DNA from: Candidatus Micrarchaeota archaeon
GTDB taxonomy: Archaea; Micrarchaeota; Micrarchaeia; Micrarchaeales; CABMGC01
Direction: 5' to 3'
DNA: 57,628 nucleotides
NCBI GenBank assembly: GCA_023256495.1
Contig: JAGDXY010000005.1
Location: 14,485-72,112 of the forward strand
Shown: positions 7,669-34,087 of the stretch, one piece after another
Layout of the letters: each line of letters starts with the position of its first letter
How positions within the stretch are numbered: the first letter of the stretch is position 1
Translations under genes and position numbers: made by a program
Notes under the pieces: generated by a model
The model's database searches: none
The model's input: only the letters and a program-made list of their open reading frames with translations
What the model was told of the DNA's origin: nothing

Positions 7669-7673
7669 ATTAT

Positions 7674-7910
7674 CTATGTTGAATTAGATAGCTGATTTAA
7701 TTGATTATCGATTTGGTTTATTATTGAAGAGTTTCCTGAAGCAAAATGCGGCAAAACTACATCTTTAACTTTTACTATCATTGTTAAAGCTATCAATATT
7801 ACTATGCTTGCTGCTGCTAACATCATTATGTATTCTAATGAACCTTGCGCCTTCTTATATTTGGCTTCTAGAAAAAGTAATCTTATTGTTTCTAGGTACA
7901 TTTTATACAC
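7674..7910 (-). CDS. type IV pilin-like protein with class III signal peptide (78 aa)
   Basis: KKAQGSLEYIMMLAAASIVILIAL matches the archaeal prepilin cleavage pattern (K/R)-x-Q-G|S-L-E-Y followed by a hydrophobic helix. Confidence 0.65.
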   Translation of the reverse strand: MYKMYLETIRLLFLEAKYKKAQGSLEYIMMLAAASIVILIALTMIVKVKDVVLPHFASGNSSIINQIDNQLNQLSNST

Positions 7911-14983: not shown

Positions 14984-16567
14984 ATGGAACAAAAAAGTGC
15001 TAACGATATTTTTAAAGAGTTTAAATCACATTCAATATCAGAATTCTTTAAAAGAAATAGCCAAATGCTAGGCTATGCTGGAAGAGTAAGATCATTGACT
15101 ACAGTAGTACATGAATATGTTACAAATTCATTGGATGCATGTGAAGAAGCAGGGATATTACCAGAGATATTTGTAGAGATTAAAGAAGTTGAAGAGAGTA
15201 AACATCTAGTAACAGTTAGAGATAATGGGCCTGGAATACCTTCGCAGTTTATAGGTAAGGCCCTAGCAAGTATTCTCTCTGGAACAAAATTCCATAGGTA
15301 TCTACAGCAAAGAGGCCAACAAGGAATAGGTGCAAGTGGCTGCACGCTATTTGCGCAGATAACTACAGGCAAAGGGGTGCATGTAGTTTCTAGAACAAGC
15401 TCAGAAAGCTTTGAATGTGATGTTGCAATAGATGTTAACAAAAATGAACCTATTATTACAAACTTTAAGAATATAGAAGGTAATGGTTTTACAGGATTAG
15501 AGATTATTGGATTATTTGGTGAAACAAAATATGAAAATAGCGAAAGAGGTGTATTAGAGTATTTGAAAAGAACAGCATTAGTTAATCCACATGCAAATAT
15601 AACATTAAAAGATCCAGATGGCAAAGAGCATGTTTTTGTAAGAACATCTAATATATTGCCTGAGAGACCAAAAGAGTCAAAGCCACATCCTTTAGGTATA
15701 ACAACAAGCGATTTAATGTATCTAGCGGAGTTAAGTAGTTCTAGATATATATCAACATTTTTAGTAGAATCATTATCTAGAGTAACAAAACAGAAAATCG
15801 ATGAACTAAAAAACTTAATACCTGATATTGATTTAGAAAAATCGCCACATGAATTGACTTGGGAAGAAGGAGAAAAGATAGTTAGAGCTCTAAAGAAAAT
15901 AAAATGGATGGCGCCAGAAACAGATACCTTATCATTAATAGGAAAAGAGCAAATAGAAAAGGCAATAAGTGCTATATTGATGCCAGAATTTGTCTCAACT
16001 ACTCAAAGGAGACCTAGAGTATACATGGGGGGTATACCTTTCGTTGTAGAAGCTGCTATAGCCTATGGCGGTAAAGCAGGTAAAGAAAGGGAAGAATTTA
16101 GGGGTGGTGAGATATTAAGATTTGCAAATAAAGTACCTTTGTTGTTTGATAGCGCAAATTGTGCGATAACAGAAGCAGTTAAAAGTATAGATTGGTCTCG
16201 TTATGGGATAAAGAATTTTGATGAAGAGCCTGTAAGTGTTTTAGTAAACATATCGAGTGTTTATGTGCCTTATTCTGGTGTAGGAAAACAAGCAGTAGCA
16301 GAAGAAGAGGAAATTATAGATGAAATAAAACTAGCTGTTATGGAATGCGCTAGAGATCTACAAAGATATCTTAATGGTGTAAAAAGGAGAAGCGTACAGG
16401 AATCAAAATATAAAACTATAATGAGATATGTTAATCAATTATCAGATGATCTTAGCGCAATTACAAGAGTTAGTAAAGATGAAATAAAAGAAAAATTAAT
16501 ATCAATATTAAAGGAACATTATTCTGGTCTATTTGAAGAAGAGACAAATGAGACTAAAGATAATTAG
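14984..16567 (+). CDS. top6B: DNA topoisomerase VI subunit B
   Basis: SISEFFKRNSQMLGY; GHKL/Bergerat motifs VHEYVTNSLDA and VRDNGPGIP; a transducer region follows. ATG 14984 is preferred over the GTG at 14975. Confidence 0.93.
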   Translation: MEQKSANDIFKEFKSHSISEFFKRNSQMLGYAGRVRSLTTVVHEYVTNSLDACEEAGILPEIFVEIKEVEESKHLVTVRDNGPGIPSQFIGKALASILSGTKFHRYLQQRGQQGIGASGCTLFAQITTGKGVHVVSRTSSESFECDVAIDVNKNEPIITNFKNIEGNGFTGLEIIGLFGETKYENSERGVLEYLKRTALVNPHANITLKDPDGKEHVFVRTSNILPERPKESKPHPLGITTSDLMYLAELSSSRYISTFLVESLSRVTKQKIDELKNLIPDIDLEKSPHELTWEEGEKIVRALKKIKWMAPETDTLSLIGKEQIEKAISAILMPEFVSTTQRRPRVYMGGIPFVVEAAIAYGGKAGKEREEFRGGEILRFANKVPLLFDSANCAITEAVKSIDWSRYGIKNFDEEPVSVLVNISSVYVPYSGVGKQAVAEEEEIIDEIKLAVMECARDLQRYLNGVKRRSVQESKYKTIMRYVNQLSDDLSAITRVSKDEIKEKLISILKEHYSGLFEEETNETKDN

Positions 16568-18794: not shown

Positions 18795-18837
18795 TATAAT
18801 AATGAAGAGTATAGCTAATTTATAAATAATTTTAATA

Positions 18838-18984
18838 TTAGCTCACCCCTTTTTTATTTATGTATTTTTCAACTAGATCGCTTACTAATCTAGATAGATA
18901 ATTCTGTTTAACTATTTTGGTTTTTATAGTAAATGCCTTAATGTATCTAAATCTCTTTATTATCTCGGCTCTATAAACAACCAT
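18838..18984 (-). CDS. possible small basic protein (48 aa)
   Basis: Not in the track. Translation is MVVYRAEIIKRFRYIKAFTIKTKIVKQNYLSRLVSDLVEKYINKKGVS. It fills the gap between the 244-aa and 746-aa genes. The strand-helix pattern could be RHH-like, which is weak evidence. Confidence 0.3.
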   Translation of the reverse strand: MVVYRAEIIKRFRYIKAFTIKTKIVKQNYLSRLVSDLVEKYINKKGVS

Positions 18985-18988
18985 AATA

Positions 18989-19723
18989 CTAACCTTTTAT
19001 TTCTAAGTAGCCTAGAGAGACCATTTTATTTAATATCTGCTCTACTCTAGGCATAGGCACGCTATTTGCTTTAGAAAATTCCTCTATATCTATAAGATTA
19101 TTATGTGATTCTAGCCATTCTTCTACCATTATCATAAGAGACTCATCCGAATATTTCAATAAAGCATCTATTTCCTCTTTTAATGATTTGTTTTCATCGC
19201 TTAGCCTAGACGCCTCTATGGTCAAATTTCTATTAGAATTCGCAAGTTCATCTGCAAGCTTCTTAAGCTCAGTATAAGAAGCTAATAGGTATTCATATTT
19301 GCCGAGTAGTTGAGTATAGTCTACATTGAGTGCGCCAAGTAAATTATCTATAGAAGAATCAATGAAAGGAAGCAATTCTTTTAGATCTATAGATATATAA
19401 TCATTTATATACAAAATTAATTCTATAAGATATCTACTAATATTTGCTCTTCTTACTCTTTCGCTAATCTCATGTGGTAATGAGTATGTAATCTTCAACT
19501 CATCCTGTTTAATTGTAAAAATATGAAAGAGATAAGGCTCTTTTTTTATGTTTCTACTTTCAACTTTAGCAAGTGTTATTGTATCATTTGAATAAGAGAA
19601 TAAATAAAGAGGTATTGTACTTAATTTTTTTGATATATCATCTAGAGTAGAATTAATCTTTATTTTTATTGTTAATTCCTCGACCTTCGGATTAAGCGAT
19701 TGTTGCTCTTCCATTTCGCTCAT
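18989..19723 (-). CDS. coiled-coil protein with C-terminal wHTH-like segment (244 aa)
   Basis: Central coiled-coil (LKKLADELANSNRNLTIEASRLSDENKSLKEEIDALL). The C-terminus EEFSKANSVPMPRVEQILNKMVSLGYLEIKG looks like a winged helix. Confidence 0.6.
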   Translation of the reverse strand: MSEMEEQQSLNPKVEELTIKIKINSTLDDISKKLSTIPLYLFSYSNDTITLAKVESRNIKKEPYLFHIFTIKQDELKITYSLPHEISERVRRANISRYLIELILYINDYISIDLKELLPFIDSSIDNLLGALNVDYTQLLGKYEYLLASYTELKKLADELANSNRNLTIEASRLSDENKSLKEEIDALLKYSDESLMIMVEEWLESHNNLIDIEEFSKANSVPMPRVEQILNKMVSLGYLEIKG

Positions 19724-19747
19724 CTATTAATATATAAATAAAGTTAT

Positions 19748-20098
19748 TTATCTTTTTTTATTTAATTTGAGTGCTGGAACCTCAATTAATATTATAATTA
19801 TAAGAAATAATAATCCTAAAATGAGAGATGCCATTATAGAATAAAGACTAGGATATAAAAATAAAGAGAATGAAAAGAACAAGACCCAAAGTATTATATA
19901 CAAATATTCTCTTCTCTTATATCTTTTATATGCTTCTTTATATTTAGGGTAGCATTCTTTGCAAACTACTAGTCTATTGTTTTTTACATTCTTTGTTATA
20001 TGCGTCTTAAACCATTTTATAATGGCTATTTGCAAATCTTCTTCTATTTCTATGCCGTCTCTTTCTCTACCACATATAATGCAATAAGATTTTTGCAT
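19748..20098 (-). CDS. zinc-ribbon protein with C-terminal 2-TM hairpin (116 aa)
   Basis: CIICG...CKEC (CxxC...CxxC), then two hydrophobic helices LYIILWVLFFSFSLFLY and ASLILGLLFLIIIILI. Confidence 0.6.
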   Translation of the reverse strand: MQKSYCIICGRERDGIEIEEDLQIAIIKWFKTHITKNVKNNRLVVCKECYPKYKEAYKRYKRREYLYIILWVLFFSFSLFLYPSLYSIMASLILGLLFLIIIILIEVPALKLNKKR

Positions 20099-20395
20099 TT
20101 ATTCAACCTTTATATCTATAATATTTCCATATAACATCTTTATTTTTTCTTCTTCAAGAAGTGTAATCATATTGCTTATATCAACATCACTAACACCTAT
20201 TCTTCTTAATATAATTCTTATTTGATTATAATTTAAACCATATTTTTGCAATAGGTCTATGAATGTTACTGCATTTATGTGTTTATGCATCTTATCTAAT
20301 TGGCTTATTATCTCTAATATATTCTTATCGCTAATATTAAATAATGATAATATCTTTATAAGCTCTATTTTTTTAACTATAAAAGTTTGAGGCAT
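20099..20395 (-). CDS. small helical protein with two HhH-like repeats (98 aa)
   Basis: Abuts the ATPase stop. Contains DLLQKYGLNYNQIRIIL and ILRRIGVSDVDISNMI, which resemble the C-terminal tail of the upstream ATPase. Confidence 0.55.
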   Translation of the reverse strand: MPQTFIVKKIELIKILSLFNISDKNILEIISQLDKMHKHINAVTFIDLLQKYGLNYNQIRIILRRIGVSDVDISNMITLLEEEKIKMLYGNIIDIKVE

Positions 20396-21925
20396 TTAAA
20401 CACCTAATTGCATAAACATCCTGCTTATTAGGAAATCAGGCATACCGAAGTTCCTTAGTAAGTTTGTTATATTCTCTTTAGATACGCCTATTCCAAGCAA
20501 TGTTGTAGCCAAATCTTTTATATCTACTTCTCTTCCTTTTGCATCTAATGCTTTAAATATAGAATCTATTATATCAGTAGAAAAGTTTATATTTATAAAC
20601 ATCGCTGTAAGATCTGGTTTCTCAAAAATAAATTCTTTTTCAATAGTACCGCTTGCTAGCTCATCGTTTGATAAAATTGAGGTTATATTGAATGAATATG
20701 TATCTAGTGGTACTTCTCCTACCACTTTATTCAACAAGAATGTATCTGGGAATTGTATGTTTGTTTGAAAAGACATGTTAACTGCAGCTTGACCTACTCC
20801 AAATTTGCTTATTTCTCTTCTCATAAACTCAGAGAAATTCAAAGAACCTTGTATATAATCTAAGAATCTTTCAAATCTTACTCTTAATATTATATTAGTT
20901 CCAACATTAGAAAATATAGTTTCATTTATATCTGTAGGATTTTGCGAAGCAACTATAAGACCAAATTGATACTTTCTACCTTCTCTTATAATAGTAATTG
21001 CATCGCTTCTATCATCACTAGCTACTTTCCATGCCTCATCTAATACTACAAATGTCTTTATACCTTTCTCACTGCTCCAACCTTCCATCCTCATTCTCTC
21101 TTTTAATGTTTGTAAAATAAATAATGAAGCAAGAGCCCTAAACTTTTCATCAGGTAAGCCAGATAGATCTATATCAACTAGGCCAGAAGTAGTTAAACTG
21201 CCTATATCAATTGTGCTCTTTCTTGCAAAGAAATCTTCACCTTCTCTAGCAAATTGCCTAAGCCTATAAATTGCATTCTCTAATTCAGCAGGATAAGGAT
21301 AATTACCTTCTTGCAATCTTTCTTGCAATAATGCAATAACATTCTTTAATGTTGGGGCATCTTTATTTTGGTCCGGTCTCTCAGCTAGTCTAAAACCAGC
21401 ATTGAGATATGTTTGCTCTATAGCCTCTTCAGTTAATCTCATCTGCTCAGGAAATTCTGCTATATCAGTTAATATTTGTAATGATGTCATTATCTGCTTA
21501 GTTCTATCCAGAGGTCTCATGCCACCTAAATCCATTATATTAAGATAAGCTCCTTTGCCAAGTTCAACTACAATGCCCCCTGCTTGCTTTACCCACGCTT
21601 TGTATTCGCCTGCCCAATCTATTATTACTGCATTTGTATTCCATATGTAACTTGCTCTTAACAAAAAAGTTTTTACAAAGAAGCTCTTACCTGCTCCGGT
21701 TATACCTACAACACATATATGTGGATTAGTAACATTATATAGACTCCAGGTAAATGGCACACCAAATATTTTTGTATTACCAATATACAAAGCACTTGTT
21801 AAGTCATTTAGTACAAATTGATGAGGTGGTTCAGGGGGTCTACTAAGTATACATCTTTTTCCTAATTCTGTATTCATAACAGTTTGAATCTTAATCAAAC
21901 CCATAATATCACGCTTGCTTAGCAA
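20396..21925 (-). CDS. VirB4/HerA-type (FtsK-HerA superfamily, DUF87-like) P-loop ATPase
   Basis: Walker A GITGAGKS (about 21683..21706), IIDWAGEY, Walker B FVVLDEAWK, and REGRKYQFGLIVASQNPTDI. The C-terminal ~60 aa form an HhH-like tail. Confidence 0.88.
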   Translation of the reverse strand: MLSKRDIMGLIKIQTVMNTELGKRCILSRPPEPPHQFVLNDLTSALYIGNTKIFGVPFTWSLYNVTNPHICVVGITGAGKSFFVKTFLLRASYIWNTNAVIIDWAGEYKAWVKQAGGIVVELGKGAYLNIMDLGGMRPLDRTKQIMTSLQILTDIAEFPEQMRLTEEAIEQTYLNAGFRLAERPDQNKDAPTLKNVIALLQERLQEGNYPYPAELENAIYRLRQFAREGEDFFARKSTIDIGSLTTSGLVDIDLSGLPDEKFRALASLFILQTLKERMRMEGWSSEKGIKTFVVLDEAWKVASDDRSDAITIIREGRKYQFGLIVASQNPTDINETIFSNVGTNIILRVRFERFLDYIQGSLNFSEFMRREISKFGVGQAAVNMSFQTNIQFPDTFLLNKVVGEVPLDTYSFNITSILSNDELASGTIEKEFIFEKPDLTAMFININFSTDIIDSIFKALDAKGREVDIKDLATTLLGIGVSKENITNLLRNFGMPDFLISRMFMQLGV

Positions 21926-22733
21926 ATATTGAAAACAACGTTTCTTTTGGATACACTACAAAATCACTGTTGAATAGATAATATAATTCTCTACCCACTA
22001 CTCTTGTTATTGATACATCAAATATATTAAATGCTACTTGTAATCTATTTAATTTTGCATTTAGATCATCTATAGCACTCTTTTCTGTAACACCATAACC
22101 TATTGTTTCTATATACATTATTGCAGATACTGGCCTTTCCTCTCTAGAAAGCCTCTCAAGTCTTGCACGCATTACGTTTATTTTTCTTTGAAGCTCATCT
22201 ATAGTCTGTTGATTTGGATTTCCAGACATCATTTCTCTATTTAATTGAAACTCATAAAATCCTATCTTGCCTTCTATGTCTTCTCTATATTTTTGCACGT
22301 CTTCTCCAATTGCTATAATATTATATCTAAATGAAAAATCTATATTGCTAACTAAGTTTTCCCACTTATCAACAGATTCCAACATTCTTTCTTCATCAAA
22401 TTCACTTACTTGCTCTGCTGTAAACACATAATTGTATATATTTGCAGTTAAATAACCTATTGCATAATAAATATTGTTAACATACCTTAAAACACAATCT
22501 TGTTTGCTAGGTATTATATAATCCTTGCCAACTATAATTTCCTTATTAAGCAACATAGTGACAACAGGAAAAACAAGAAAATCAGCGTAGTTAATTAAAA
22601 ATATCATTGCAATTCCAAAAATTGCAAGTGCAGATACAATTATTGAAAAAGGACCATAAGCGCCAGCACTGAAAAGTAATATAATAAATGTCAAAGCGCC
22701 AAAACCCAAATATATCATTGTTTCTTGATCCAC
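21909..22733 (-). CDS. 2-TM protein with ~200-aa cytoplasmic domain (274 aa), paralogue-like to 22733..23533
   Basis: Two N-terminal hydrophobic helices are followed by a soluble domain with a coiled-coil (IDELQRKINVMRARLERLS). It overlaps the ATPase start by 17 nt. Confidence 0.65.
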   Translation of the reverse strand: MDQETMIYLGFGALTFIILLFSAGAYGPFSIIVSALAIFGIAMIFLINYADFLVFPVVTMLLNKEIIVGKDYIIPSKQDCVLRYVNNIYYAIGYLTANIYNYVFTAEQVSEFDEERMLESVDKWENLVSNIDFSFRYNIIAIGEDVQKYREDIEGKIGFYEFQLNREMMSGNPNQQTIDELQRKINVMRARLERLSREERPVSAIMYIETIGYGVTEKSAIDDLNAKLNRLQVAFNIFDVSITRVVGRELYYLFNSDFVVYPKETLFSIFAKQA

Positions 22734-23533
22734 TAAACCACCACATTTTCTCTAAGTTTTTCTGTAATTAGCTCTATAGGCACATAAGTGGTTGGCTCAC
22801 AGAATAGTAATATTTCATCCCTTGTTGCTACAGATGCATTTACTCCTGTTAATGAACTAATTCCAGAGGCTATCTCTTCAGCCCTTTGCATAGCTAGATT
22901 CGATGCTTCATCCTCGTTACCACCAACTGCGCTAACCATAACAAATGTAACTAAATCCCTTGGCGATGCTTTTGACAAACCATCCAACAAATTATGCCAC
23001 ATTGTTAATGCTCCTTTTAATCTATCTAAAACCCTTTCATCTTTTTCGTTTGCTATTTTTTCTTCAAGCTCATTTATGTTGTTTATTATTGTTGTTTTAT
23101 GTATAGATGTATTTACTAAATATACTTGTGAAACTATTTTAAATGGATATTGACTAATTATAGCTAATCTACTAAAAAGTTTTGCAAATTCCAGTTTCTC
23201 ATCATTGTTCATTTCAGAAGCAGATTTATATAAAGGTATTTTAACAAATGCAGAGGCGTATACACTATTGCCTTCCCTTCTAAATATAACATTTCCACTA
23301 GGACTCAATACATATGGTGGATCATCATATAGATTAATTTTATTTCCTCTTGACTTTATAGCAGGTATTAATATGTAACTATAATAACGCATTGAAAATC
23401 CAAGCAAACCAAGGAATATTGCAACTAAAGCAAGTATAAATTTAACTATTGTTATATCTATTAAAAAAGAGAATACTATAACGGCCCACGAAGCAAAAAT
23501 TAAGGTGATGAAATACATTAGTTGAGTTTGCAT
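22733..23533 (-). CDS. 2-TM protein with ~200-aa cytoplasmic domain (266 aa)
   Basis: Same architecture as the 274-aa neighbour. By-eye correspondences are YVLSPSGNVIFRREGNSVYASAFVKIP vs YIIPSKQDCVLRYVNNIYYAIGYLTANI, and VTFVMVSAVG vs AIMYIETIGYG. Confidence 0.65.
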   Translation of the reverse strand: MQTQLMYFITLIFASWAVIVFSFLIDITIVKFILALVAIFLGLLGFSMRYYSYILIPAIKSRGNKINLYDDPPYVLSPSGNVIFRREGNSVYASAFVKIPLYKSASEMNNDEKLEFAKLFSRLAIISQYPFKIVSQVYLVNTSIHKTTIINNINELEEKIANEKDERVLDRLKGALTMWHNLLDGLSKASPRDLVTFVMVSAVGGNEDEASNLAMQRAEEIASGISSLTGVNASVATRDEILLFCEPTTYVPIELITEKLRENVVV

Positions 23534-23565
23534 TAATCTTTTTTATACTTTTAAATTTAAAAAGA

Positions 23566-24639
23566 TTATATTATTCCCATGCTTAACAGGCCTCTAGGTT
23601 TGTAGTAAAGCCCACCTAGAAAATCACTTATTGTTATTATAGTAGCGTATGTTATTGAATAGATAAGCATAGGAAAGAATAGAACAGATAAGAAATAAGA
23701 GCCAATACTTGATGATATTGCATTTAATTGAGTTGCTATTGAATTTGGATTTCCTGGTGGATTAATACCTGTATTAAGCACACCTTCATTAGTTAATGTA
23801 TTTAGTCTAGATGAAATTGAAGAGAAGGTACTTGCTAAGCCATTAGTAGTTATGCCATAAGACAATGCAAATAATACAGGCATTACTCCATAAAGGCCAA
23901 TTCCTATACCAATCATTAATCCACCTATATGCCTTGTTGGTAATATTGAACGGAAAACTACGCCTGGTATAATAAACAAAGGTATAGAAAAATACATAGC
24001 AAATAAAATAATATAGAACTCTATATTTAATAGTAGTAAGCCATCAGCTAAAAATGGTGTTATAGTCTCTATAGGTAAAAGAACGAATATGTTTATTAAA
24101 CTAAATAAAATTGGAAAGATAGAATTAGGAACCTTAAATGCTGATACGTATACATTTAAAGTAAGTGTAGTAATTGGGGCTGCAACAACATATACTTTAT
24201 ATAAAGAGTTTATGAGCGTTTCTGTTTGATTTATTGTAGAATTTATATAATACAACGAAGTGTTATACGGATCTATATTTCCTATTAATAATCCAGGAAA
24301 ACCGCCGAATATTAATGCCATTATAAATAAGAAGCTTATAACAATTAATGCAGTAGCACCTGCTTCATAAAATTCAGCTATAGCAAAATCTCTAAGTTTT
24401 GAATTATTAAGTATAAAACTTAGCATAAATAATATAGTACCTATAGAGAATGAAGCAAAAACAGCAATTATAACTATTGGATACCATGTTAACCAAGTAT
24501 TTGTAACTATTGTATTTACTTGACTACAATACCATGAAGGTAAAATTGTTTTTTCTGGTGATTCGCATACATTACTTTGGGCATTTATAATATACAATAA
24601 GATTAATAACAAAATAAAATATAACTTATTTAACCTCAT
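23566..24639 (-). CDS. polytopic membrane protein, paralogue P6 (357 aa)
   Basis: Signal-like N-terminus MRLNKLYFILLLILLYIINAQS followed by a Cys pair, then many hydrophobic helices. Family signature is VFRSILPTRHIGGLMIGIGIGLYGVMP; the C-terminus ends ...LLSMGII. Confidence 0.75.
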   Translation of the reverse strand: MRLNKLYFILLLILLYIINAQSNVCESPEKTILPSWYCSQVNTIVTNTWLTWYPIVIIAVFASFSIGTILFMLSFILNNSKLRDFAIAEFYEAGATALIVISFLFIMALIFGGFPGLLIGNIDPYNTSLYYINSTINQTETLINSLYKVYVVAAPITTLTLNVYVSAFKVPNSIFPILFSLINIFVLLPIETITPFLADGLLLLNIEFYIILFAMYFSIPLFIIPGVVFRSILPTRHIGGLMIGIGIGLYGVMPVLFALSYGITTNGLASTFSSISSRLNTLTNEGVLNTGINPPGNPNSIATQLNAISSSIGSYFLSVLFFPMLIYSITYATIITISDFLGGLYYKPRGLLSMGII

Positions 24640-25715
24640 ATTAATCTCACCAACGCATCTACGAGATTTACCTTTTCTCCTACTGCATTTGACATATCTA
24701 AAATAAATATGTTAACAATAGTTATATTTAATATTGGAAACAAAATAGTACCGATTCCTATAGCCATAAATAAATTTATTAGCTTGATAATTTCTATAGT
24801 TGCTATAGAAGTAGATAATAATGTAATAGATATGCCAAAGATTGAAAGAAAACTAAGAATAGAGCTAAAAAGTAAAGAAGCTAAACCAATAAAAGGCAAT
24901 ATAAAAAGTGATACTAAAGAGATAAATATTATATAAAATAATATCGTATTACTTTCTATAAACGATGTAATAGGTCCATAAGTAAGAATAGTTATAATTG
25001 GATAAAATATTCCTATACCTATACCCATTACTATCAAGGTATTGCCAAAAGTCCTACTTACAAGAAATATTCTAGCCAATAATCCAAGACCAACAAATAT
25101 TAACAATAACATAAATGAGCTTGCTAACATATATTCTTGCATTACATTTAGAATAGCAAGAGTGTAAAGAAAAGTAATGAGGGGGCTTATAAAACCGATA
25201 AATGAAAAAGGAAATTCTACGCTAAAACTTAGACCCACACCTTTCATTATGCTTATACCTATATTAAATGATGGGATAAGATCTATAACGAGCATCGCAT
25301 AATAAAATAAACCCATATAATCATTGAAATAAGAATTAAATGTATGCATAATACATGTAGAGATGGAATTAATAGTAGTTGAACCATAATTTGAATTAAG
25401 ATTGCTCGTGCTTGTACATTGTTGTGGCACATAGTTATTAAGATATGATGGTGAGGTATTGTTAATATTTGTATAAAAATCTATAAAAAAATTGAATAGC
25501 AAAACAAAGACTATAGTCAAGAGCACATCATATATCTTTTGATTAAGCCATATATGCATATTAGTTAGCCCTAAGAATTTGCTTAAAGCAAATAATATAC
25601 CTATTATAGATAAAATTGCCAATGAAGTTAAACCAACTAATGCAAATATAGCTGTTTCTATATTATTTAAAATTTGACTTTCAACTTGTAGTAATATTAA
25701 ATTTATAATCATCAT
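24636..25715 (-). CDS. polytopic membrane protein, paralogue P5 (359 aa)
   Basis: Degenerate signature LARIFLVSRTFGNTLIVMGIGIGIFYP; the C-terminus ends ...ALVRLI. ATGA overlaps at both ends. Confidence 0.75.
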   Translation of the reverse strand: MMIINLILLQVESQILNNIETAIFALVGLTSLAILSIIGILFALSKFLGLTNMHIWLNQKIYDVLLTIVFVLLFNFFIDFYTNINNTSPSYLNNYVPQQCTSTSNLNSNYGSTTINSISTCIMHTFNSYFNDYMGLFYYAMLVIDLIPSFNIGISIMKGVGLSFSVEFPFSFIGFISPLITFLYTLAILNVMQEYMLASSFMLLLIFVGLGLLARIFLVSRTFGNTLIVMGIGIGIFYPIITILTYGPITSFIESNTILFYIIFISLVSLFILPFIGLASLLFSSILSFLSIFGISITLLSTSIATIEIIKLINLFMAIGIGTILFPILNITIVNIFILDMSNAVGEKVNLVDALVRLI

Positions 25716-27070
25716 ATTATCCTACCTAACAAACCCTCTCTACTTAATGAAGGTGCACCGAGTAGATCACCCAATATCTCTAATAACTCATAAGATATTA
25801 TAAATGCTACTGCTAAACCCAATATCTCAGCAACAAAATAAAAGAAAAAACTGATAAATACACCAAGAAGTTGAATTGTAAGAGAGAATAATGAACTAAA
25901 AATCGAGATAAATCCGATAAAAGGAAGAAGATATGAAAACAATGAAATTACCATATTTACTATAATGTTATGAAAACCAGAAGCAGTCGTAGTAGGAATT
26001 ATAACAGTTGTAAGTCTAAGATCAATTTTATTAAGTATTAAAATAAGACTATAAAGCAAAGCAGGGAAAAAGAAATAAATAGAGATAAATGCAGCTATCA
26101 TAGCACCACCTGCAGCTCTAGTCCAAGGAAAAGATCTAAAAACAACGCCAATTAAGAAGAGAATAGGAAATACTTGATATATTATTATAGAGAGAAATGC
26201 AGTTGCAAGCATTAATCCAATAACCCAAATCATAGTATTTATCATAAAACTGATTGTTGTAATTAAAACTGACAAATTAAAAATTGTAAAACTGAATCCA
26301 GGTATAAGTGGTATTAGAACAAAGCCACCAAGAGAAACTAAATTTAGACCATATGGAGCAAGTGAAATACTAAGTGAGTTAATTATATCAAACAAGAATT
26401 TTATAGCAAGAAGTTCAGCATAGAGTCCTATAGAATTGCCAAGATTAGAAATACTTTCTCCACATAATGCAGTAAAGAGTGCTTTATCAGAACTAAATGA
26501 ATTTACTTGTGTGTTTGTTGCATATCCAATAAACTGCGCTATGCCACTAACAATAGAAGGCATGGAGGTAAATAAGAATAATACAAAAATAATAAGTATA
26601 AGATTGAAGATTTGTTCAACGTATTCTGCTTTAGAAAATTGAACTAATTTTGAAAAATTAAAACCAATACCTATTGCATATGCTAAGCCAACTACACTAA
26701 GAACCATTAACGATATTAAAAATGCAATAGATAAAATAGAAGATATATAAGAACTTTTGAGTTGAGGAACTATTCTCTGATTCATCAAAGTACTGCAAAA
26801 CTCATTTTGAATAGAATTAAAATTACCGCTTGGTGAGATTACTATTTGGCCATTTATTGCTGTCGTAGTTGAAGCTGAAGTTGTAGAAGCCGTTGAAGAC
26901 GAAATGCTAGATGTTGAAACAGATATTGGAATTGTTGTAGTTATAGATGTTGTTGGCCTTGGTGAGATAGGTACTCTATATTGCATAGGATAAAAATAGC
27001 TGAGCAAAAAGACATTGTATAATATTAATAAAATAAATGATGGTTCAAAAAGATATTTTTTGTAGTTCAT
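25712..27070 (-). CDS. polytopic membrane protein, paralogue P4 (452 aa)
   Basis: Signature VFRSFPWTRAAGGAMIAAFISIYFFFP. An N-terminal S/T-rich tract reads TTSITTTIPISVSTSSISSSTASTTSASTTT. The C-terminus ends ...LLGRII. Confidence 0.75.
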   Translation of the reverse strand: MNYKKYLFEPSFILLILYNVFLLSYFYPMQYRVPISPRPTTSITTTIPISVSTSSISSSTASTTSASTTTAINGQIVISPSGNFNSIQNEFCSTLMNQRIVPQLKSSYISSILSIAFLISLMVLSVVGLAYAIGIGFNFSKLVQFSKAEYVEQIFNLILIIFVLFLFTSMPSIVSGIAQFIGYATNTQVNSFSSDKALFTALCGESISNLGNSIGLYAELLAIKFLFDIINSLSISLAPYGLNLVSLGGFVLIPLIPGFSFTIFNLSVLITTISFMINTMIWVIGLMLATAFLSIIIYQVFPILFLIGVVFRSFPWTRAAGGAMIAAFISIYFFFPALLYSLILILNKIDLRLTTVIIPTTTASGFHNIIVNMVISLFSYLLPFIGFISIFSSLFSLTIQLLGVFISFFFYFVAEILGLAVAFIISYELLEILGDLLGAPSLSREGLLGRII

Positions 27071-28428
27071 ATTAATCTACTCAAAGGTCCAAGATTTGTC
27101 TCACCGCCTATTAAAGATGATATTCCAATAGATCCGGATATTGTTAAAATAATGTTAAATAAAGGTATTAATAAACCCGCTATTGCTGTATAGCCATATG
27201 CATGAGCCAATGTAAATACAGTATTTAAAGCGTTTTCAGGTCCACAACCACTAATTATTATACCCCCAAATGTATTAACTAAATTTACTACAGAAAATAG
27301 TGCAGTTAATGGAAACGTAACTGGAAGAAGAAATGTAGCTGCATCTTTCACCTCCTCAAGCAATAAGTTACCGTCAATAGGCCAACAACCATAATAATTC
27401 TCTATTTGTGTATCATTTGGTAATATAAACATATTAATAGCATTAAATGTATAGATATTATTAGTATTAACCTGTTTTTGATATATAGTCATAGAAGGTA
27501 GAGAATTTGCGCCTATTGGAGAAAGTTGATTGTTACTAAAACTTACAAATTCTATCATATAAGTAAGAGGTAATATAGAGATTAGACCAATTGCAAATCC
27601 TATAAATAAGCCACCAATCCTTCTAAATACAGGCAAAGAACGTAAGAATATGCCAACACCAAGTAAAAATGGCCATATATAAACTATTGCCCCTAATAAA
27701 ATTAATTCAGCAATCAATAAGTAGTTCATCAAAATTGCTTGTACTATTATTGGTTTTAACATTGTATCTAACAATGAGTATCCAGCAAACACCCTCTCTC
27801 TAGCCGTAATAAATATGTCTGCCTGAGACTCTAGACCTTGAATTTCACATGTTTCACCTATACATAATGCAAACGTTGGAGTTAATTGTGAAAAGAAACT
27901 AACTAAGCCACTAAAGATATAAAGTGCATTGAAGTTGTTCATTTCTTGGTTTGTCACATTTGCCACTATAAAATAAGTAGTAGCTAATCCGTAATCTATT
28001 GCAGCAGTTGAAGGATCTGGTACATTACCATTTGGATTAATTATAGATTCCATTGCAATAAATTCATTACTTGTTTGATTTATTAAACCGAAAGGAGAAT
28101 TCGATAGATATTGGATGAAATACTCATTTATCTGACTTGGTGAAAGTATAGATGAAAATACCTTTGATAAGATAGAACTTATAAACCAGGTAGTTATTAT
28201 TATAATTATAAGAGTATATAATAACTGATAATACTCTAAACGTGCTATATTTTTTATCTTTGAGCTGTTTGCTATTGCCCCTATAATATATACTATAGAT
28301 ATAACTAGTAAACCAGTAATAACACCTAATATTGCTATAGGAATCCAAGAACTAACTACGCTATAACTAGTAATCAAATTCTGCGTTTGAAAGAGCAAAT
28401 ATTCAGCTCCAAAAGCCACTTGGAACAC
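27067..28428 (-). CDS. polytopic membrane protein, paralogue P3 (453 aa)
   Basis: Signature FLRSLPVFRRIGGLFIGFAIGLISILP; the C-terminus ends ...PLSRLI. It overlaps the 3' end of P2 by 26 nt. Confidence 0.75.
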   Translation of the reverse strand: MFQVAFGAEYLLFQTQNLITSYSVVSSWIPIAILGVITGLLVISIVYIIGAIANSSKIKNIARLEYYQLLYTLIIIIITTWFISSILSKVFSSILSPSQINEYFIQYLSNSPFGLINQTSNEFIAMESIINPNGNVPDPSTAAIDYGLATTYFIVANVTNQEMNNFNALYIFSGLVSFFSQLTPTFALCIGETCEIQGLESQADIFITARERVFAGYSLLDTMLKPIIVQAILMNYLLIAELILLGAIVYIWPFLLGVGIFLRSLPVFRRIGGLFIGFAIGLISILPLTYMIEFVSFSNNQLSPIGANSLPSMTIYQKQVNTNNIYTFNAINMFILPNDTQIENYYGCWPIDGNLLLEEVKDAATFLLPVTFPLTALFSVVNLVNTFGGIIISGCGPENALNTVFTLAHAYGYTAIAGLLIPLFNIILTISGSIGISSLIGGETNLGPLSRLI

Positions 28429-29524
28429 CCAATATAGATGGTATAGAGTTTAGGCCTTTATAAATGCCATAGGCAAGTGCTAAAGTAAACATAAAATCTA
28501 TTGCAATTAAAAATATTCCTTCAAAATAAAATACTCCTAAAAGATATGAAAGTTCATACAATATGTTTGGTGGATCAGTTAATGCAGTTAATAATGTTTT
28601 AAGATTGAAGAAACTAAAGAAACCTAATATATCATTAAATATATTCGGCAGTTGGGTTATATTTTGATTAAAAATAGAGTTGAATGTAAAGTCTAGCTCA
28701 TGCGAACTTGCTAGATATACATCAAATGAATCAATATTTTGCATTATATAAGCATCCATTATTATAGTCAAAGGAAGTATAAAATAAAATGCAATAGATA
28801 TAGCTATAAATGCATTTGCAGTATCCCTAAGCTTATTTCCCAAAAATGCAAAAGCTCTTATTATAAGTGCTACAGGTAAAACAAAATTTAATGCTAATGC
28901 CTCTATAACAAACATAATTAAGAGCAATATGAATAATACACCCATTGGTATTATAGCCAAAAACCCGAATACATCGCTTAATAAAACACCATAAATACCA
29001 ATCAAGGCAGCAACCGGCTTTCCTATTGAAAGGCCTACTGAAGCAAATGCTACAGAAGCACTACGAGTAGAAGAAAAAAGAAGGGCTGAATAATAATCGA
29101 GTATTATACCTGCAGCATATAGATTAAAAGAATCCGCAAAAATCTTTACTACTAAATATGTGCCTTGTTGAAACACCATTTGTGACAGATAATATGTTGA
29201 AAATGAAAACGGATTATTGAATCCAAAAGAGCTTGATATCTGTGAACCTATACTACATCCTATAATAGAGAATGAAAATATAGCTGATATTAAAATAATT
29301 CCAAAAACAGCTGTAGCAAACTCGATTTTTGTTATTCCGCTTATCTTTTCTCTTTGCTGTGCTGGGAAAAATCTACCAATTGTATATATAATAGAAGCAA
29401 GCATAAGAGAAAAAAGTATTACCAATATATTTATGTTCACCCAACCTATAGATTGGCTAATGTATTGAAAGCTAGTGCAATAGGTATTTGCATAGATTGT
29501 CTGGAATAATATTGGCATTAGCAT
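28403..29524 (-). CDS. polytopic membrane protein, divergent paralogue P2 (373 aa)
   Basis: Same position and architecture as its neighbours. The signature is degenerate: IIRAFAFLGNKLRDTANAFIAISIAFYFILP. Confidence 0.7.
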   Translation of the reverse strand: MLMPILFQTIYANTYCTSFQYISQSIGWVNINILVILFSLMLASIIYTIGRFFPAQQREKISGITKIEFATAVFGIILISAIFSFSIIGCSIGSQISSSFGFNNPFSFSTYYLSQMVFQQGTYLVVKIFADSFNLYAAGIILDYYSALLFSSTRSASVAFASVGLSIGKPVAALIGIYGVLLSDVFGFLAIIPMGVLFILLLIMFVIEALALNFVLPVALIIRAFAFLGNKLRDTANAFIAISIAFYFILPLTIIMDAYIMQNIDSFDVYLASSHELDFTFNSIFNQNITQLPNIFNDILGFFSFFNLKTLLTALTDPPNILYELSYLLGVFYFEGIFLIAIDFMFTLALAYGIYKGLNSIPSILGVPSGFWS

Positions 29525-29525
29525 A

Positions 29526-30779
29526 TCAAATACCCAATTTTCTTGTTATAGTAGGGCTTATTCCACTTGAACTGCCTAACAACTTTGCTATGTCATTAGT
29601 TAATGAGAGACCTATCACTAGATCTATGATATAAAGTATATATTGTACTATTATATAAACACCATTTCCTATTGGAGCTATCGATATGCCCTGGGCTTGT
29701 GATTGAGTAATAAGGAAGTGATTAAAGAACGGGAATATGCTATTTATTGAAGAAAATGCAAGAAAAATATCTTGAAACGCAGAAATAGAACTGACTAACA
29801 AAGTAACAAGTTGCACTAATAAGTCACTGGCAAATCCATTGGTATTACCTAAATTAACTGTGCTTATACTATAAAATTGCATAGCAATATTTGATATTGG
29901 CGCATTTAAAAAGATTAATAAAGATGGATATATTAAACTTATTCCAATTCCTATACCTATTAGTGTACCGCCTAATGGCCTTAATATAGGAAACGATCTA
30001 AATGCAATGCCTATAGGTATAAAAAGTATTAAGCCCAAAAACATTATAAAATCTAAGAATTTATACTGCAATAAGAATAGTAAAAAGGTATAAAAAGCAA
30101 TGAAATATGTATCAACAATTATAGAATAATTACGCGAAAATATAAAAGAAGTAGTAAGAGATCCAAATACCTCACTATTAAAGAAACTAGATTTGAAACC
30201 CCAATCTACACCAATCGTTACAAATTCTGCTAAGACTGCTACACCTGCATCAGCATCTATAGTAAAAGATCTTAGAAATCCAGAGGCTATTGTAAATATG
30301 TAAAGAAAATAAAGGCTTTGCTCTGTTAGTTCACACCCTTGTTGCAAGTAGTTTGTTCTTACGATATTAGCAAATGCTTCTACCATATTATTAAAATTTA
30401 CCGTATTTGTTTGTGTTGATGCTTGACTTGTTTGTGTTTGTAATGATGTTGTTGTTTGAGCTATATTAACAAGTATAGATGTAATGAACAGAATGATAGA
30501 ATAGATGCTTGCTAGTATTATAAGAGATTTGATTAATTCCCATGATTCATTTTGTGTGACCCACTGCCTTAAACCTATATTTGGAAAAATTGTACCTATC
30601 ATGTAGCCTAAAGCCATTATGGCTAAAGAAAGCATAATACCTATTAAGCCAAGAGATATTGCATTTGTAGTGTTTATAGGAAAAGATAATGTATTAAAAG
30701 AAGTGCAAGGATCAGTATATGTTTGAGCATGCAAAGTAAACAATAACAATAATAATAACAATATGTAAGTATTTTTCAT
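29526..30779 (-). CDS. polytopic membrane protein, paralogue P1 (417 aa)
   Basis: Signal-like N-terminus MKNTYILLLLLLLFTLHAQ followed by Cys. Has a Q/T/S tract QTTTSLQTQTSQASTQTNT. Signature is AFRSFPILRPLGGTLIGIGIGISLIYP. Confidence 0.75.
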   Translation of the reverse strand: MKNTYILLLLLLLFTLHAQTYTDPCTSFNTLSFPINTTNAISLGLIGIMLSLAIMALGYMIGTIFPNIGLRQWVTQNESWELIKSLIILASIYSIILFITSILVNIAQTTTSLQTQTSQASTQTNTVNFNNMVEAFANIVRTNYLQQGCELTEQSLYFLYIFTIASGFLRSFTIDADAGVAVLAEFVTIGVDWGFKSSFFNSEVFGSLTTSFIFSRNYSIIVDTYFIAFYTFLLFLLQYKFLDFIMFLGLILFIPIGIAFRSFPILRPLGGTLIGIGIGISLIYPSLLIFLNAPISNIAMQFYSISTVNLGNTNGFASDLLVQLVTLLVSSISAFQDIFLAFSSINSIFPFFNHFLITQSQAQGISIAPIGNGVYIIVQYILYIIDLVIGLSLTNDIAKLLGSSSGISPTITRKLGI

Positions 30780-30839
30780 ACTATTAAAAATTTGATTAAT
30801 TAACTTATTTAACTTTTCTCTTAATAAAATTTTTATAAT

Positions 30840-31547
30840 TTATAATTTTCTCAATATAGGATATGCTCTTATGTATGCTAATGCTATAAATATAATGAGA
30901 TATGGTAATAAGAATAAAGAAGTTATAATTAATAATATATATTCACCAATCTCGTTTGGTAAGAGCGTAGTTAGTATTGAATCAAATAATAACAAAGAGA
31001 TTAATGCTATAAATAACCATAAAACGAAATAATAAAAGCCATAGCTGCTTTTTATGTATCTTATGTTATCTATTATTGCTCCTTTTATAGACCTATCTTT
31101 TAGTATTATAGAGGCAGGAGAGTAGAATATAAAGATAAATAAAATTAATGCAACTAAATCGCTAAGCAAATGTGAAACTAAATAAGATGCGATGAAAATT
31201 ATATAGAATATAAAGAATAGTATAAAAACCCTTATTGTATATGATTCTATATTTCTAAGGTCCCTTTTCCCAATCTTTGTCTTTGTTTTGATTGATTTAA
31301 CTATCATCACTATTAAAACAAATGCCAAACTAAACAAAGTAAGAGAAAACAAAAAAGAGATTACAATAGATAATATTATTATTGGAGTTAAATCAAAGGA
31401 TCTTATAAAAATACCACCTAAAGCTATAAATGATGGAAGAGGAAAAGCCAATGGAATCAATAATGATATGAAGAATGCTAATGAAAATATTGATACTAAC
31501 TTTATATTCGCTAGATACAATAAAATGCTCTCTTTTAATATGTTCAT
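30840..31547 (-). CDS. polytopic membrane protein (235 aa, about 6 hydrophobic helices by eye)
   Basis: Its ATG directly follows the TAG stop of the MoxR gene. Almost entirely hydrophobic. The segment GGIFIRSFDL weakly echoes the FRSxP signature. Confidence 0.65.
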   Translation of the reverse strand: MNILKESILLYLANIKLVSIFSLAFFISLLIPLAFPLPSFIALGGIFIRSFDLTPIIILSIVISFLFSLTLFSLAFVLIVMIVKSIKTKTKIGKRDLRNIESYTIRVFILFFIFYIIFIASYLVSHLLSDLVALILFIFIFYSPASIILKDRSIKGAIIDNIRYIKSSYGFYYFVLWLFIALISLLLFDSILTTLLPNEIGEYILLIITSLFLLPYLIIFIALAYIRAYPILRKL

Positions 31548-32459
31548 CTAATCAACCGATGCTAAAATACCATCTATAATACCACTAACTCCTATACCAC
31601 CTGTAGCTCTTGTCACTATTCTATGGCTTAGAACTGGTTTTGCTAAGAATGTGACATCATCTTTAATTACTTTGTTTCTTCCTTCTATTAATGCCTTTGC
31701 TTTTGCGCAATTTACTAAAGCAATAATTGCTCTAGGGCTAGCACCCATTACAACATGTATATCGCTTCTTGTGGCATCTACAATCCTAATTATATAATTT
31801 GCTATATCATCATCTAATGATACATTCTTTACCATAGACTGCAAGCTTAGTATTGTCTCTATATCAACTACTTTATTTATCTCTAGTTGTGTATCTTTTT
31901 CCTTTAACCTTATCATCTCTATCTCTTCGTTCTCTGATGGATAGTCTACATTAATCTTCATAATAAACCTATCTGCAAGTACTTTTGGCAATGGTTCTGT
32001 TCCTTCAATATTTAATGGGTTTTGTGTAGCAAATGCAATGAATAGATCAGGTAATTTATAATTTATACCACCTATAGTAACTACTCTCTCTTCTAGCATT
32101 TCTAGAAAGGCGCTCATTGTCTTTGGTGGCGTTCTGTTTAGCTCATCAAGCAAAAGCAAGTTTGTAAATATTGGTCCTTTATGAACTTTTAGGTTGTTGT
32201 CACTAGGGTCTATGTAGGTATAGCCCACTATATCTTGAGGAGTTAAATCAGATGTACCTTGTATTCTCTTAAAATCTGCATTTATAGCACTAGCAAGAGA
32301 TTTTACCATTGTTGTTTTTGCTACACCAGGCACACCCTCTAGCAAAACATGCCCATTTGCAACTAAACCAATAAACATAAGCTTTATTACATCTTCTTTT
32401 CCTGCAATCTTCTTTTTAACCTCTTTTAATACTAAATTATAAACTTCTTGTGGCTCCAA
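31548..32459 (-). CDS. MoxR-family AAA+ ATPase
   Basis: HVLLEGVPGVAKT (Walker A), FKRIQGTSDLTPQDIVG, LLLLDELNRTPPKT (Walker B) and ATQNPLNIEGTEPLPKVLADRF. Confidence 0.9.
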   Translation of the reverse strand: MEPQEVYNLVLKEVKKKIAGKEDVIKLMFIGLVANGHVLLEGVPGVAKTTMVKSLASAINADFKRIQGTSDLTPQDIVGYTYIDPSDNNLKVHKGPIFTNLLLLDELNRTPPKTMSAFLEMLEERVVTIGGINYKLPDLFIAFATQNPLNIEGTEPLPKVLADRFIMKINVDYPSENEEIEMIRLKEKDTQLEINKVVDIETILSLQSMVKNVSLDDDIANYIIRIVDATRSDIHVVMGASPRAIIALVNCAKAKALIEGRNKVIKDDVTFLAKPVLSHRIVTRATGGIGVSGIIDGILASVD

Positions 32460-33796: not shown

Positions 33797-34087
33797 ATGA
33801 CAAAGATATTAAAGCCAAAATTTAAAATAGAGAATATAGTAGCAAGTGCAGATTTAGGTGTAGAATTAGATCTATATGGCATAGCAAAGGCGTCAAAGAA
33901 TGTAGATTATGAGCCTGAGCAGTTTCCAGGAGCAATATGTAAAATAGATAAGCCAAAAGCATCTTTATTACTATTTAAAAATGGTAAGATTATATGCACA
34001 GGTGCCAAATCTGAAAAGGAAATAGAAGAGGCATTAGAGAAAGTAATAAAGATTGTAGAGGGCCATACGTTAACTGCCCCTCAATAG
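33797..34087 (+). CDS. single-repeat TATA-box-binding-protein-like protein (half-TBP, 96 aa)
   Basis: IENIVASADLGVELDL, YEPEQFPGAICKI and LLLFKNGKIICTGAKSEKE are the hallmark segments of one TBP repeat. The ORF ends after one repeat and the next gene is on the other strand. Confidence 0.8.
   Translation: MTKILKPKFKIENIVASADLGVELDLYGIAKASKNVDYEPEQFPGAICKIDKPKASLLLFKNGKIICTGAKSEKEIEEALEKVIKIVEGHTLTAPQ

Follow-up and report, generated by a model that had tools for sequence, protein, structure and literature searches.

This locus raises the question of what six tandem genes for polytopic membrane proteins, lying close to the gene of a VirB4-like ATPase, might build in an archaeal symbiont. The genes belong to a stretch of 57,628 nucleotides (nt) from contig JAGDXY010000005.1 of a Candidatus Micrarchaeota archaeon (hereafter the window). 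The original prediction took the six proteins, here called P1 to P6, for paralogues sharing an Arg/Gly-Gly signature, and compared them with the tandem VirB6 paralogues of the Rickettsiales rvh type IV secretion system (T4SS). We find that they are anciently duplicated paralogues, kept in a fixed order with the ATPase across the Micrarchaeota. On balance, we lean towards the view that they form the VirB6-like platform of a chromosomal, phylum-wide, T4SS-derived translocon with a split VirB4, a reading that we hold to be probable but well short of certain.

Six paralogues in a fixed order

Six consecutive open reading frames (ORFs) of the predicted lengths were recovered, with coordinates and minus strand exact:

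P1, 29526-30779, minus strand: 417 amino acids (aa), candidate VirB6-like paralogue 1; signature AFRSFPILRPLGGTLIGIGIGISLIYP at 29925-30005.
P2, 28403-29524, minus strand: 373 aa; variant signature R-x5-G-x3-R at 28772-28864; without the basic C-terminal tail.
P3, 27067-28428, minus strand: 453 aa; two enlarged, Cys-rich, predicted outer loops; signature at 27568-27648.
P4, 25712-27070, minus strand: 452 aa; N-terminal anchor and Ser/Thr-rich linker; signature at 26063-26143.
P5, 24636-25715, minus strand: 359 aa; signature at 24999-25079, reading G-N in this genome.
P6, 23566-24639, minus strand: 357 aa; best-conserved paralogue, and the one that was modelled; signature at 23878-23958.

The genes follow one another in a single direction, overlapping by 4 nt or leaving no more than 1 nt between them, except at the start of P3, a GTG that overlaps P2 by 26 nt and is uncertain for that reason; the database form of P3 has 450 aa. 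The array is part of a tightly packed operon of 15 genes (about 15 kb, 16554-31547) that runs from a gene called here U1 to one called E4, neighbouring genes abutting or sharing 4 nt along its whole length. The P genes are translationally coupled, and the operon includes an ATPase module (D1, D2 and the ATPase, followed by E1 and E2).

Are the six proteins related to each other? Direct BLAST comparison is weak (22 to 39% identity, over partial lengths), and the window, part of an AT-rich archaeal chromosome, has 29% G+C. Both facts would suit a compositional artefact, in which hydrophobic AT-rich coding sequence produces the shared motif in unrelated ORFs. This explanation is refuted, and we give it practically no credence. 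Shuffling was done within 20-residue windows, so that the hydrophobic layout was preserved, and was repeated 200 times per pair. Under Smith-Waterman alignment, all 15 pairs scored above their shuffles (z 2.2 to 10.9 standard deviations), and in 11 of them the observed score was reached by none of the 200; U1, a neighbouring polytopic protein taken as a control, behaved like the shuffles (z < 2). Profiles were then compared with hhalign, each built from 46 to 62 orthologues collected from 81 related loci. Every one of the 15 pairs matched with a probability of 96.2 to 99.4% (E 3e-9 to 5e-21, 68 to 312 columns), over at least 203 columns in 14 pairs and just 68 for P2-P5, whereas matches to the operon controls U1, D1, D2 and E2 did not exceed 9.4%. 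The motif, finally, is invariant in orthologues from genomes with 45 to 52% G+C. Given the shuffle and profile results, P1 to P6 are genuine paralogues, as originally proposed. They are ancient ones, with no local duplication: P3, P4 and P6 are nearest to each other, and P2 is the most divergent (96.2 to 98.3% against the other families).

The common segment described about two-thirds along each protein was found in all six, at 58 to 69% of the length. Its first Arg is conserved in 82 to 100% and its second in 85 to 100% of orthologues in each group, and the signature R-x5-R-x2-GG is kept in five of the six paralogues. The Gly-Gly pair is found in 100% of P1, P3, P4 and P6 orthologues, and its two positions in 100% and 91% of those of P5. 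The two degenerate copies pointed out earlier thus differ in kind: the G-N of P5 in the window is a minority state, since G-G is present in 91% of P5 orthologues, and P2 orthologues share a fixed variant, R-x5-G-x3-R...N...P. The closing Pro is 100% conserved across all six groups. The C-termini had been read correctly (KLGI, SRLI, GRII, VRLI, MGII), and the claim that they are basic-aliphatic holds for the orthologues of P1, P3, P4 and P6, where the last hydrophobic helix is followed by a conserved LGG-type turn and a 10- to 15-residue tail ending in [KR]-aliphatic-aliphatic. It does not extend to P5, in which the tail is degenerate, or to P2, which ends differently.

To locate relatives of the ATPase, each GTDB species was represented by one genome and scanned for a pattern, which yielded 360 stretches. 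The best 80 of these are 62 to 71% identical to the window ATPase and nearly all labelled Micrarchaeota. ORFs in the 81 related loci were assigned by iteratively built hidden Markov models (HMMs). The order U1-P1-P2-P3-P4-P5-P6-D1-D2-ATPase-E1-E2 is complete in 48 loci, and 14 more end at a contig or flank edge, always with the correct suffix order; no irregular gene order was seen among the 81. Further downstream, E3, a 48-aa ORF and E4 are conserved in 69 to 73 loci. Homologues of D2 led to the most divergent lineages sampled, and these have the same order. In the three genomes compared protein by protein, each window paralogue best matches its positional counterpart, one-to-one, at 27 to 38% identity. 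Copy number is strictly six, in fixed order, in all loci with enough flanking sequence, and the nearest P relatives all come from metagenome-assembled genomes (MAGs) of Micrarchaeota, a DPANN lineage. Neither this phylum-wide one-to-one conservation nor the 15-gene operon with its candidate split VirB4 figured in the original prediction.

The membrane and ATPase modules can separate, since one locus (L001) carries the U1-P1..P6 block alone, adjoining Exo5 and alaS, and five loci have no P gene within at least 7.5 kb upstream. D1-D2-ATPase occurs without upstream P genes in L003, L004 and L072, and L010 and L044 carry ATPase-E1-E2 with neither D1 nor D2 beside it.

A word-indexed search with the six-paralogue alignment returned 5 matches only, hydrophobic words having saturated the candidates, and single-protein or exhaustive searches did better. 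The exhaustive profile search gave 2,942 clusters at 50% identity (E up to 1e-3), a number consistent with six copies in each genome of a large phylum. Where members carry a name it is 'hypothetical', or 'multipass membrane protein' in ARMAN-2, and full-text searches of a limited literature collection turned up no paper on such a cluster, whether in Micrarchaeota or elsewhere in DPANN. The records of some cluster-bearing contigs (L007, L060, L075, L082, P0107) give Marsarchaeota, 'Acidiferrales bacterium', 'bacterium' or Saccharimonadales as the source, probably because these MAG contigs were mis-binned or mislabelled.

Tandem, polytopic and hydrophobic proteins could also be copies of a solute transporter or permease, multiplied for substrate diversity and unrelated to the downstream ATPase. 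We consider this very improbable. None of 116 family members matches any Pfam transporter family, and none of the window proteins one in NCBIfam. Expansion driven by substrates would vary the copy number, whereas here it is strictly six, in fixed order and one-to-one. The genes are moreover translationally coupled in one operon with the ATPase module, and the helices of the P6 model, at 34 to 58 residues, are far longer than membrane spans. Shuffle-level alignments and a match to a known permease family, the two outcomes that the original prediction named against itself, were thus both absent.

Relation to VirB4 and possible relation to VirB6

The VirB4-like ATPase reported beside the array is encoded two genes downstream, and is accompanied by two membrane-anchored proteins:

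D1, 22733-23533, minus strand: 266 aa; N-terminal membrane hairpin and soluble alpha/beta domain; kept in 76 loci.
D2, 21909-22733, minus strand: 274 aa; membrane hairpin and soluble domain.
ATPase, 20396-21925, minus strand: 509 aa as an ORF; two genes downstream of P6; P-loop ATPase of the VirB4/CedB/HerA clade.

The ATPase ORF begins with a TTG at 21925; all orthologues start at its Met8 (ATG 21904), the probable true start, which removes a 17-nt overlap with D2.

Pfam assigns DUF87/HerA-central, AAA_10 and P-loop_TraG domains to the ATPase. The NCBIfam models rank in the order CedD, VirB4-like CD1110, CedB, mycoplasma VirB4, TraC and then HerA, with all scores far under the cut-offs (72 bits against 600 for CedD). 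Judged by its sequence, the ATPase is a distant member of VirB4, with a RecA-like domain and Walker motifs. Against a VirB4 profile, hhalign aligned it with 94.3% probability (E 1e-7, 295 columns), its residues 86-414 corresponding to 445-774 of TrwK, the VirB4 of plasmid R388, and the VirB4 structure 4AG5 in the PDB was matched over residues 65-335 (E 1.7e-8). Since the alignment is confined to TrwK 445-774, the gene corresponds to the C-terminal domain of VirB4 alone. Matches to HerA are restricted to the C-terminal half (residues 240-382). The gene does not fit a HerA repair or defence helicase: the full-length HerA architecture is absent, and no NurA or defence gene is adjacent.

If the ATPase is a VirB4 C-terminal domain, where is the rest? 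D1 and D2, whose soluble alpha/beta domains have about 200 aa each, are paralogous to each other (hhalign 97.3%, E 2e-11). An AlphaFold2 model of D2 (predicted local distance difference test, pLDDT, 82.4) was compared by Foldseek with 350,542 PDB chains, and its best matches were the TrwK/VirB4 chains of R388 (probability 0.97, E 0.08, 169 columns). D2 is accordingly a candidate, on the strength of this model, for a VirB3 fused to the N-terminal domain of VirB4, and we infer that D1 and D2 are equivalents of the VirB3 membrane hairpin plus that domain. In VirB4 itself, that N-terminal domain often follows a VirB3 membrane hairpin or is fused to one. Pfam and NCBIfam scans of U1, D1 and D2 gave no match.

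The P proteins were examined for the topology of VirB6, using alignment-averaged hydropathy and counts per loop of K/R, D/E, Cys and N-x-S/T in the six ortholog alignments. A common plan emerged. It starts with a signal-like or anchor helix, a brief exposed stretch that holds a conserved Cys, and helix 1, followed by a K/R-rich loop of 5 to 10 residues, helix 2, and an acidic loop of 60 to 145 residues with Cys and N-x-S/T sequons. Helix 3, the Arg/Gly-Gly turn and helix 4 come next, and the protein ends with an acidic, Cys-bearing loop of 40 to 146 residues, helix 5 and a basic tail. In all six families, K/R residues abound in the short loops and the tail, and Cys is absent from them. By the positive-inside rule, this places the N-terminus and two large loops outside and the C-terminus inside, so that the predicted topology is N-out, with five hydrophobic helices and a basic C-in tail. 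Jakubowski et al., in 2004, reportedly found A. tumefaciens VirB6 to be N-out, with five transmembrane segments, a large periplasmic loop and C-in. All six families are predicted to share the VirB6 arrangement (N-out, at least five hydrophobic helices, a large central extracytoplasmic loop, C-in). In a review, VirB6 proteins have mainly 5 to 6 hydrophobic helices (PMC12857230).

The AlphaFold2 model of P6 (pLDDT 75.7) contains seven helices of 19 to 58 residues, and the signature forms a tight turn joining two very long ones (174-231 and 233-284). In the same Foldseek search, the first three ranks were all TrwI, the VirB6 of R388 (8rt9_F, 7o3v_F and 7o3v_J, probability 0.99). P6 and D2 thus pick two subunits of one R388 machine, next to an ATPase that aligns with VirB4, and this coincidence is what gives the T4SS reading its weight. 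The genomic context agrees with it: the VirB4-family ATPase is encoded alongside the P genes, colinear in 48 loci.

A considerable body of results weighs against this reading. The P6-TrwI matches are marginal (E 0.016 to 0.06, TM-score 0.29 to 0.42, root-mean-square deviation, rmsd, 9 to 10 Å), all Foldseek matches of P6 and D2 lie at E 0.016 to 0.08 and rmsd 6 to 10 Å, and the output does not give the region of TrwK covered by D2. All-helical membrane models also draw spurious fold matches. In sequence searches, P1 to P6 had no match in Pfam at E up to 1, nor in NCBIfam at E up to 0.1, a library in which the presence of a CedA model was unconfirmed. The 116 family members, run against Pfam at E up to 10, hit neither TrbL (PF04610) nor any recurrent family, a lone T4SS_pilin match having an E-value of 0.019, and the P-family profile retrieved zero PDB sequences at E up to 10. 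With hhalign, P profiles reached at most 0.4% against TrwI alone, where U1, D1, D2 and E2 likewise gave nothing, and at most 0.2% against an alignment of seven MPF_T VirB6 sequences. The operon proteins stayed below 5% with profiles of VirB2, VirB3, VirB5 and VirB8; D1 and D2 did not exceed 2.3% with VirB4 or VirB3, and gave no signal with VirB8 either. Nor does the operon have a recognisable pilin, VirD4-type coupling protein, relaxase or VirB8 homologue. Finally, the solved and predicted VirB6 assemblies are homopentamers (PMC12857230).

How much do the negative profile comparisons count? The reference T4SS profiles (R388 record NC_028464) are shallow and narrow, built from 5 to 7 proteobacterial sequences of R388-type plasmids with no secondary-structure term, so that the negative VirB6 result is not a strong one. 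In published work, TedA was tied to CedA, and more remotely to VirB6-like proteins, by sensitive profile-profile comparison alone, at 13% identity (PMC9905601). The VirB6 likeness raised in the original prediction therefore stands in its indirect part, that is fold ranking, topology and context, and fails as membership by sequence, given the lack of TrbL matches and the hhalign values. We infer that the P proteins are homologous to VirB6.

Other genes of the operon and its surroundings

Besides the P genes and D1, D2 and the ATPase, the operon encodes the following:

U1, 30840-31547, minus strand: 235-aa polytopic membrane protein, not a P paralogue; first conserved gene of the membrane module.
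E1, 20099-20395, minus strand: 98 aa; small soluble helical protein.
E2, 19748-20098, minus strand: 116 aa; N-terminal CxxC...CxxC zinc ribbon, then a C-terminal membrane hairpin.
E3, 18989-19723, minus strand: 244 aa; cytoplasmic coiled coil and, by eye, a winged-helix-like C-terminus; present in 73 loci.
Small ORF, 18838-18984, minus strand: 48 aa, very basic; conserved between E3 and E4.
E4, 16554-18794, minus strand: 746 aa; signal or anchor helix, ectodomain of about 530 aa, one transmembrane helix, cytoplasmic domain of about 200 aa.

In 36 related loci, P1 is immediately preceded by an orthologue of U1. E1 resembles the C-terminal 80 or so residues of the ATPase; helix-hairpin-helix DNA-binding repeats had been suspected in both, and the idea was dropped, Pfam and the PDB giving only scattered weak EF-hand, winged helix-turn-helix and UBA matches. 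E3 stays close to the ATPase module even in the rearranged loci L003 and L004, where it is inverted and upstream of D1. Counterparts of the small ORF, basic and of 48 to 52 aa, are found at L090:13939-14097 and L092:13477-13626, and are easily overlooked in annotation.

The ectodomain of E4 is crowded with N-x-S/T sequons. The protein is conserved in 69 loci, and had no match in Pfam or the PDB. We regard it as a candidate for a subunit at the surface or in contact with the host, putatively glycosylated. A role as the S-layer (surface layer) protein was rejected, as E4 lacks the PF05123 domain carried by the published Micrarchaeum S-layer protein (bioRxiv 10.1101/2021.04.28.441871).

Evolutionary rates were compared by mirror-tree residuals, corrected for housekeeping divergence. 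The residual correlations are 0.39 to 0.62 among P proteins, 0.44 to 0.67 between P proteins and E4 (the highest that any protein shows with the P proteins), 0.46 to 0.53 between P proteins and the ATPase, and at most 0.36 with E1 or E2, these values having no null distribution and being drawn from non-independent distances. The rates of D1 and D2 also covary with those of P proteins. Such covariation lends weak support to a joint machine.

The cluster is surrounded in the window by housekeeping genes (TopoVI-B, Rpo4, DUF655, L21e, S8e, TBP, aRF1). A viral or mobile-element origin is unlikely, since no relative of the ATPase was found in viral contigs; the housekeeping surroundings count against a mobile element as well.

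These surroundings bear on a further scenario, in which the operon encodes a lineage-specific envelope machine whose membrane parts do not descend from a T4SS. The P proteins would then be a hetero-oligomeric channel or scaffold of a new family, served by a HerA/FtsK-type ATPase, and their VirB6 likeness would be convergence. Such a machine might act on E4 or the S-layer, by export, anchoring or remodelling, or have a part in division or chromosome handling. P, D1 and D2 indeed have no sequence or profile link to any T4SS component, and for the ATPase, HerA structures and VirB4 are matches of about equal quality, all NCBIfam scores lying below the cut-offs. The cluster is universal, strongly conserved and set among housekeeping genes, as a housekeeping function would be, and the gene of a putative glycoprotein, E4, is part of the operon. 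It also speaks for this scenario that the mode of anchoring of the Micrarchaeum S-layer is not known (PMC8975820; bioRxiv 10.1101/2021.04.28.441871). Set against it are the independent choice by P6 and D2 of two subunits of one R388 T4SS as best PDB folds, the fact that the ATPase aligns best, and over its full length, with the VirB4 C-terminal domain and CedB, and the lack of PF05123 in E4. We judge the envelope machine unlikely, although it is the main rival.

Three other features of the window are worth recording. A MoxR-type AAA ATPase (31548-32459, minus strand) abuts U1 with zero gap; among the related loci fetched, MoxR is next to U1 elsewhere only in L046, and it is probably outside the system. 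The TBP gene (33797-34087, plus strand) encodes 96 aa, no more than one TBP repeat (positions 1-83 of the 85 in PF00352) that would need to work as a homodimer, and a counterpart of 102 aa and 48% identity exists in another Micrarchaeota genome (L082:9715-10023). Last, a T2SSE-type ATPase of type II/IV secretion or pilus systems is encoded at 8923-10353. Five ORFs (167, 183, 109, 103 and 404 aa) without a Pfam match follow it, and the locus (5736-10353, minus strand) may be a divergent type IV pilus-like one.

A candidate translocon and its relatives

How might the T4SS-derived translocon that we favour be organised? P1 to P6 would co-assemble in fixed stoichiometry as a hetero-oligomeric membrane platform or protochannel. 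Neither the copy number nor the order of the genes ever varies, their translation is coupled, and each paralogue has been kept throughout the history of the phylum; these observations favour obligate co-assembly over expansion driven by substrates. The motor would consist of D1 and D2, as membrane-anchored adaptors resembling VirB3 and the VirB4 N-terminal domain, and of the separate VirB4 C-terminal ATPase, expected to form a hexamer. The Arg/Gly-Gly hairpin that joins helix 3 to helix 4 is predicted to lie on the cytoplasmic side, as are the basic tails, and both could dock onto D1, D2 or the ATPase, or gate against them. The long acidic loops of the P proteins, with their Cys and sequons, would face the pseudo-periplasm and could build a stalk. 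VirB6 oligomers, pentameric in R388, are placed in the middle of the VirB4 hexamer. Most of the R388 VirB6 lies in a pentameric periplasmic cone, and two N-proximal helices alone span the membrane (PMC12857230). The pseudo-periplasm of Micrarchaeum is 20 to 25 nm wide (bioRxiv 10.1101/2021.04.28.441871), and a comparable structure there would be in keeping with the unusual length of the hydrophobic helices of the P proteins and the size of their predicted outer loops. E4, as a heavily glycosylated single-pass surface protein, would be the likely outward or host-contact partner.

The substrate would be a macromolecule that crosses the symbiont membrane at the contact with a Thermoplasmatales host. 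Purely by analogy with the archaeal Ced and Ted systems, of which the machine would be the Micrarchaeota counterpart, DNA would be the favoured cargo and import the simplest direction. Transfer directed to the host, as proposed for the T4SS of the Candidate Phyla Radiation (CPR), would be the alternative (PMC12102498). A more specific model has one copy each of P1 to P6 in a pseudo-symmetric VirB6-like channel on a hexameric split-VirB4 motor, serving the Micrarchaeota, and perhaps other DPANN, as a core apparatus to exchange DNA or macromolecules with their wall-less Thermoplasmatales hosts; we advance it tentatively, and doubt remains greater than belief.

Compared with VirB6/TrwI of the R388 stalk (7O3V, 8RT9), which heads the fold matches of the P6 model, the P proteins are likewise polytopic, measure about 340 to 450 aa and are predicted to combine 5 to 6 hydrophobic helices of great length with a large region outside the cytoplasm and a basic C-tail inside it; they too are encoded beside a VirB4-type ATPase. 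However, they have no detectable sequence or profile similarity to TrwI, carry the family-specific R-x5-R-x2-GG...P, and are six distinct paralogues instead of the product of one gene forming a homopentamer. Unlike in R388, partners of the VirB2, VirB5, VirB8, VirB9, VirB10 and VirB11 types were not recognised in the operon.

The Ced and Ted systems, which import DNA in Crenarchaeota, are closer in several respects. They too are chromosomal, domesticated archaeal derivatives of a T4SS with paralogous VirB6-like membrane proteins (PMC11868833, PMC9905601). Ced of the Sulfolobales has the paralogous pairs CedA/CedE and CedB/CedD, and the N-terminal domains of CedB and CedD match different parts of that of VirB4, so that VirB4 function is divided between proteins, as would be the case here (PMC11868833). 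The Micrarchaeota ATPase also scores best against the CedD, CedB and VirB4 models of NCBIfam. In contrast, its scores are far below the family cut-offs, there are six paralogues instead of two, and the modules resembling the N-terminal domain are separate membrane-anchored proteins, not fused to ATPase domains. A pilin of the CedA1/TedC type was not recognised in the Micrarchaeota operon. The organisms differ as well, a DPANN symbiont on one side and free-living Sulfolobales or Thermoproteales on the other.

With the Rickettsiales rvh system, the locus shares several diverged VirB6-like genes in tandem beside virB4, in an obligately host-associated organism with a reduced genome. The VirB6 paralogues of Rickettsiales are recognisable VirB6/TrbL proteins, mostly 'extended' with large hydrophilic domains, in an otherwise canonical VirB/D system. 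In the P proteins, by contrast, homology is visible only as a predicted fold, and the rest of the machine differs. The earlier comparison with rvh is therefore apt as an analogy and does not go further. Ehrlichia is credited with four VirB6 paralogues in its rvh system (Bao et al. 2009, as relayed in PMC12857230).

Among ultrasmall episymbionts, other chromosomal VirB4-centred membrane machines are known. Patescibacteria (CPR) have a chromosomal T4SS, of which the virB6, prgI/virB3 and trsD homologues were each reported to be essential for epibiotic growth (PMC12102498), and in Nanohaloarchaeota SPEARE couples a giant surface adhesin to a VirB4-like ATPase (PMC10266531), a pairing that E4 and the ATPase would parallel. 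Unlike those of the operon described here, the components of both can be recognised by T4SS HMMs; the two also depart from it in architecture, domain fusions and lineage, and a six-paralogue VirB6 array is found in neither.

An array of six VirB6-like paralogues together with a VirB4 spread over three genes appears to be unprecedented in a T4SS- or Ced-type machine and, if the reading is true, this would be the first T4SS-type translocon made of six different VirB6 subunits. The products of the operon are labelled only as hypothetical or multipass membrane proteins in current databases, and about 2,900 sequence clusters are available for the definition of a new family. If the operon is T4SS-derived, the machine type of the archaeal Ced and Ted systems would extend to DPANN and show an extreme diversification of subunits, with a fixed set of six VirB6-like paralogues and with VirB4 divided among three genes. 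The Arg/Gly-Gly hairpin, the C-tails and the ectodomain of E4 would then be defined targets in the Ca. Micrarchaeum harzensis co-culture. The operon offers a concrete, phylum-wide candidate of 15 genes that bears on how DPANN archaea physically exploit their hosts.

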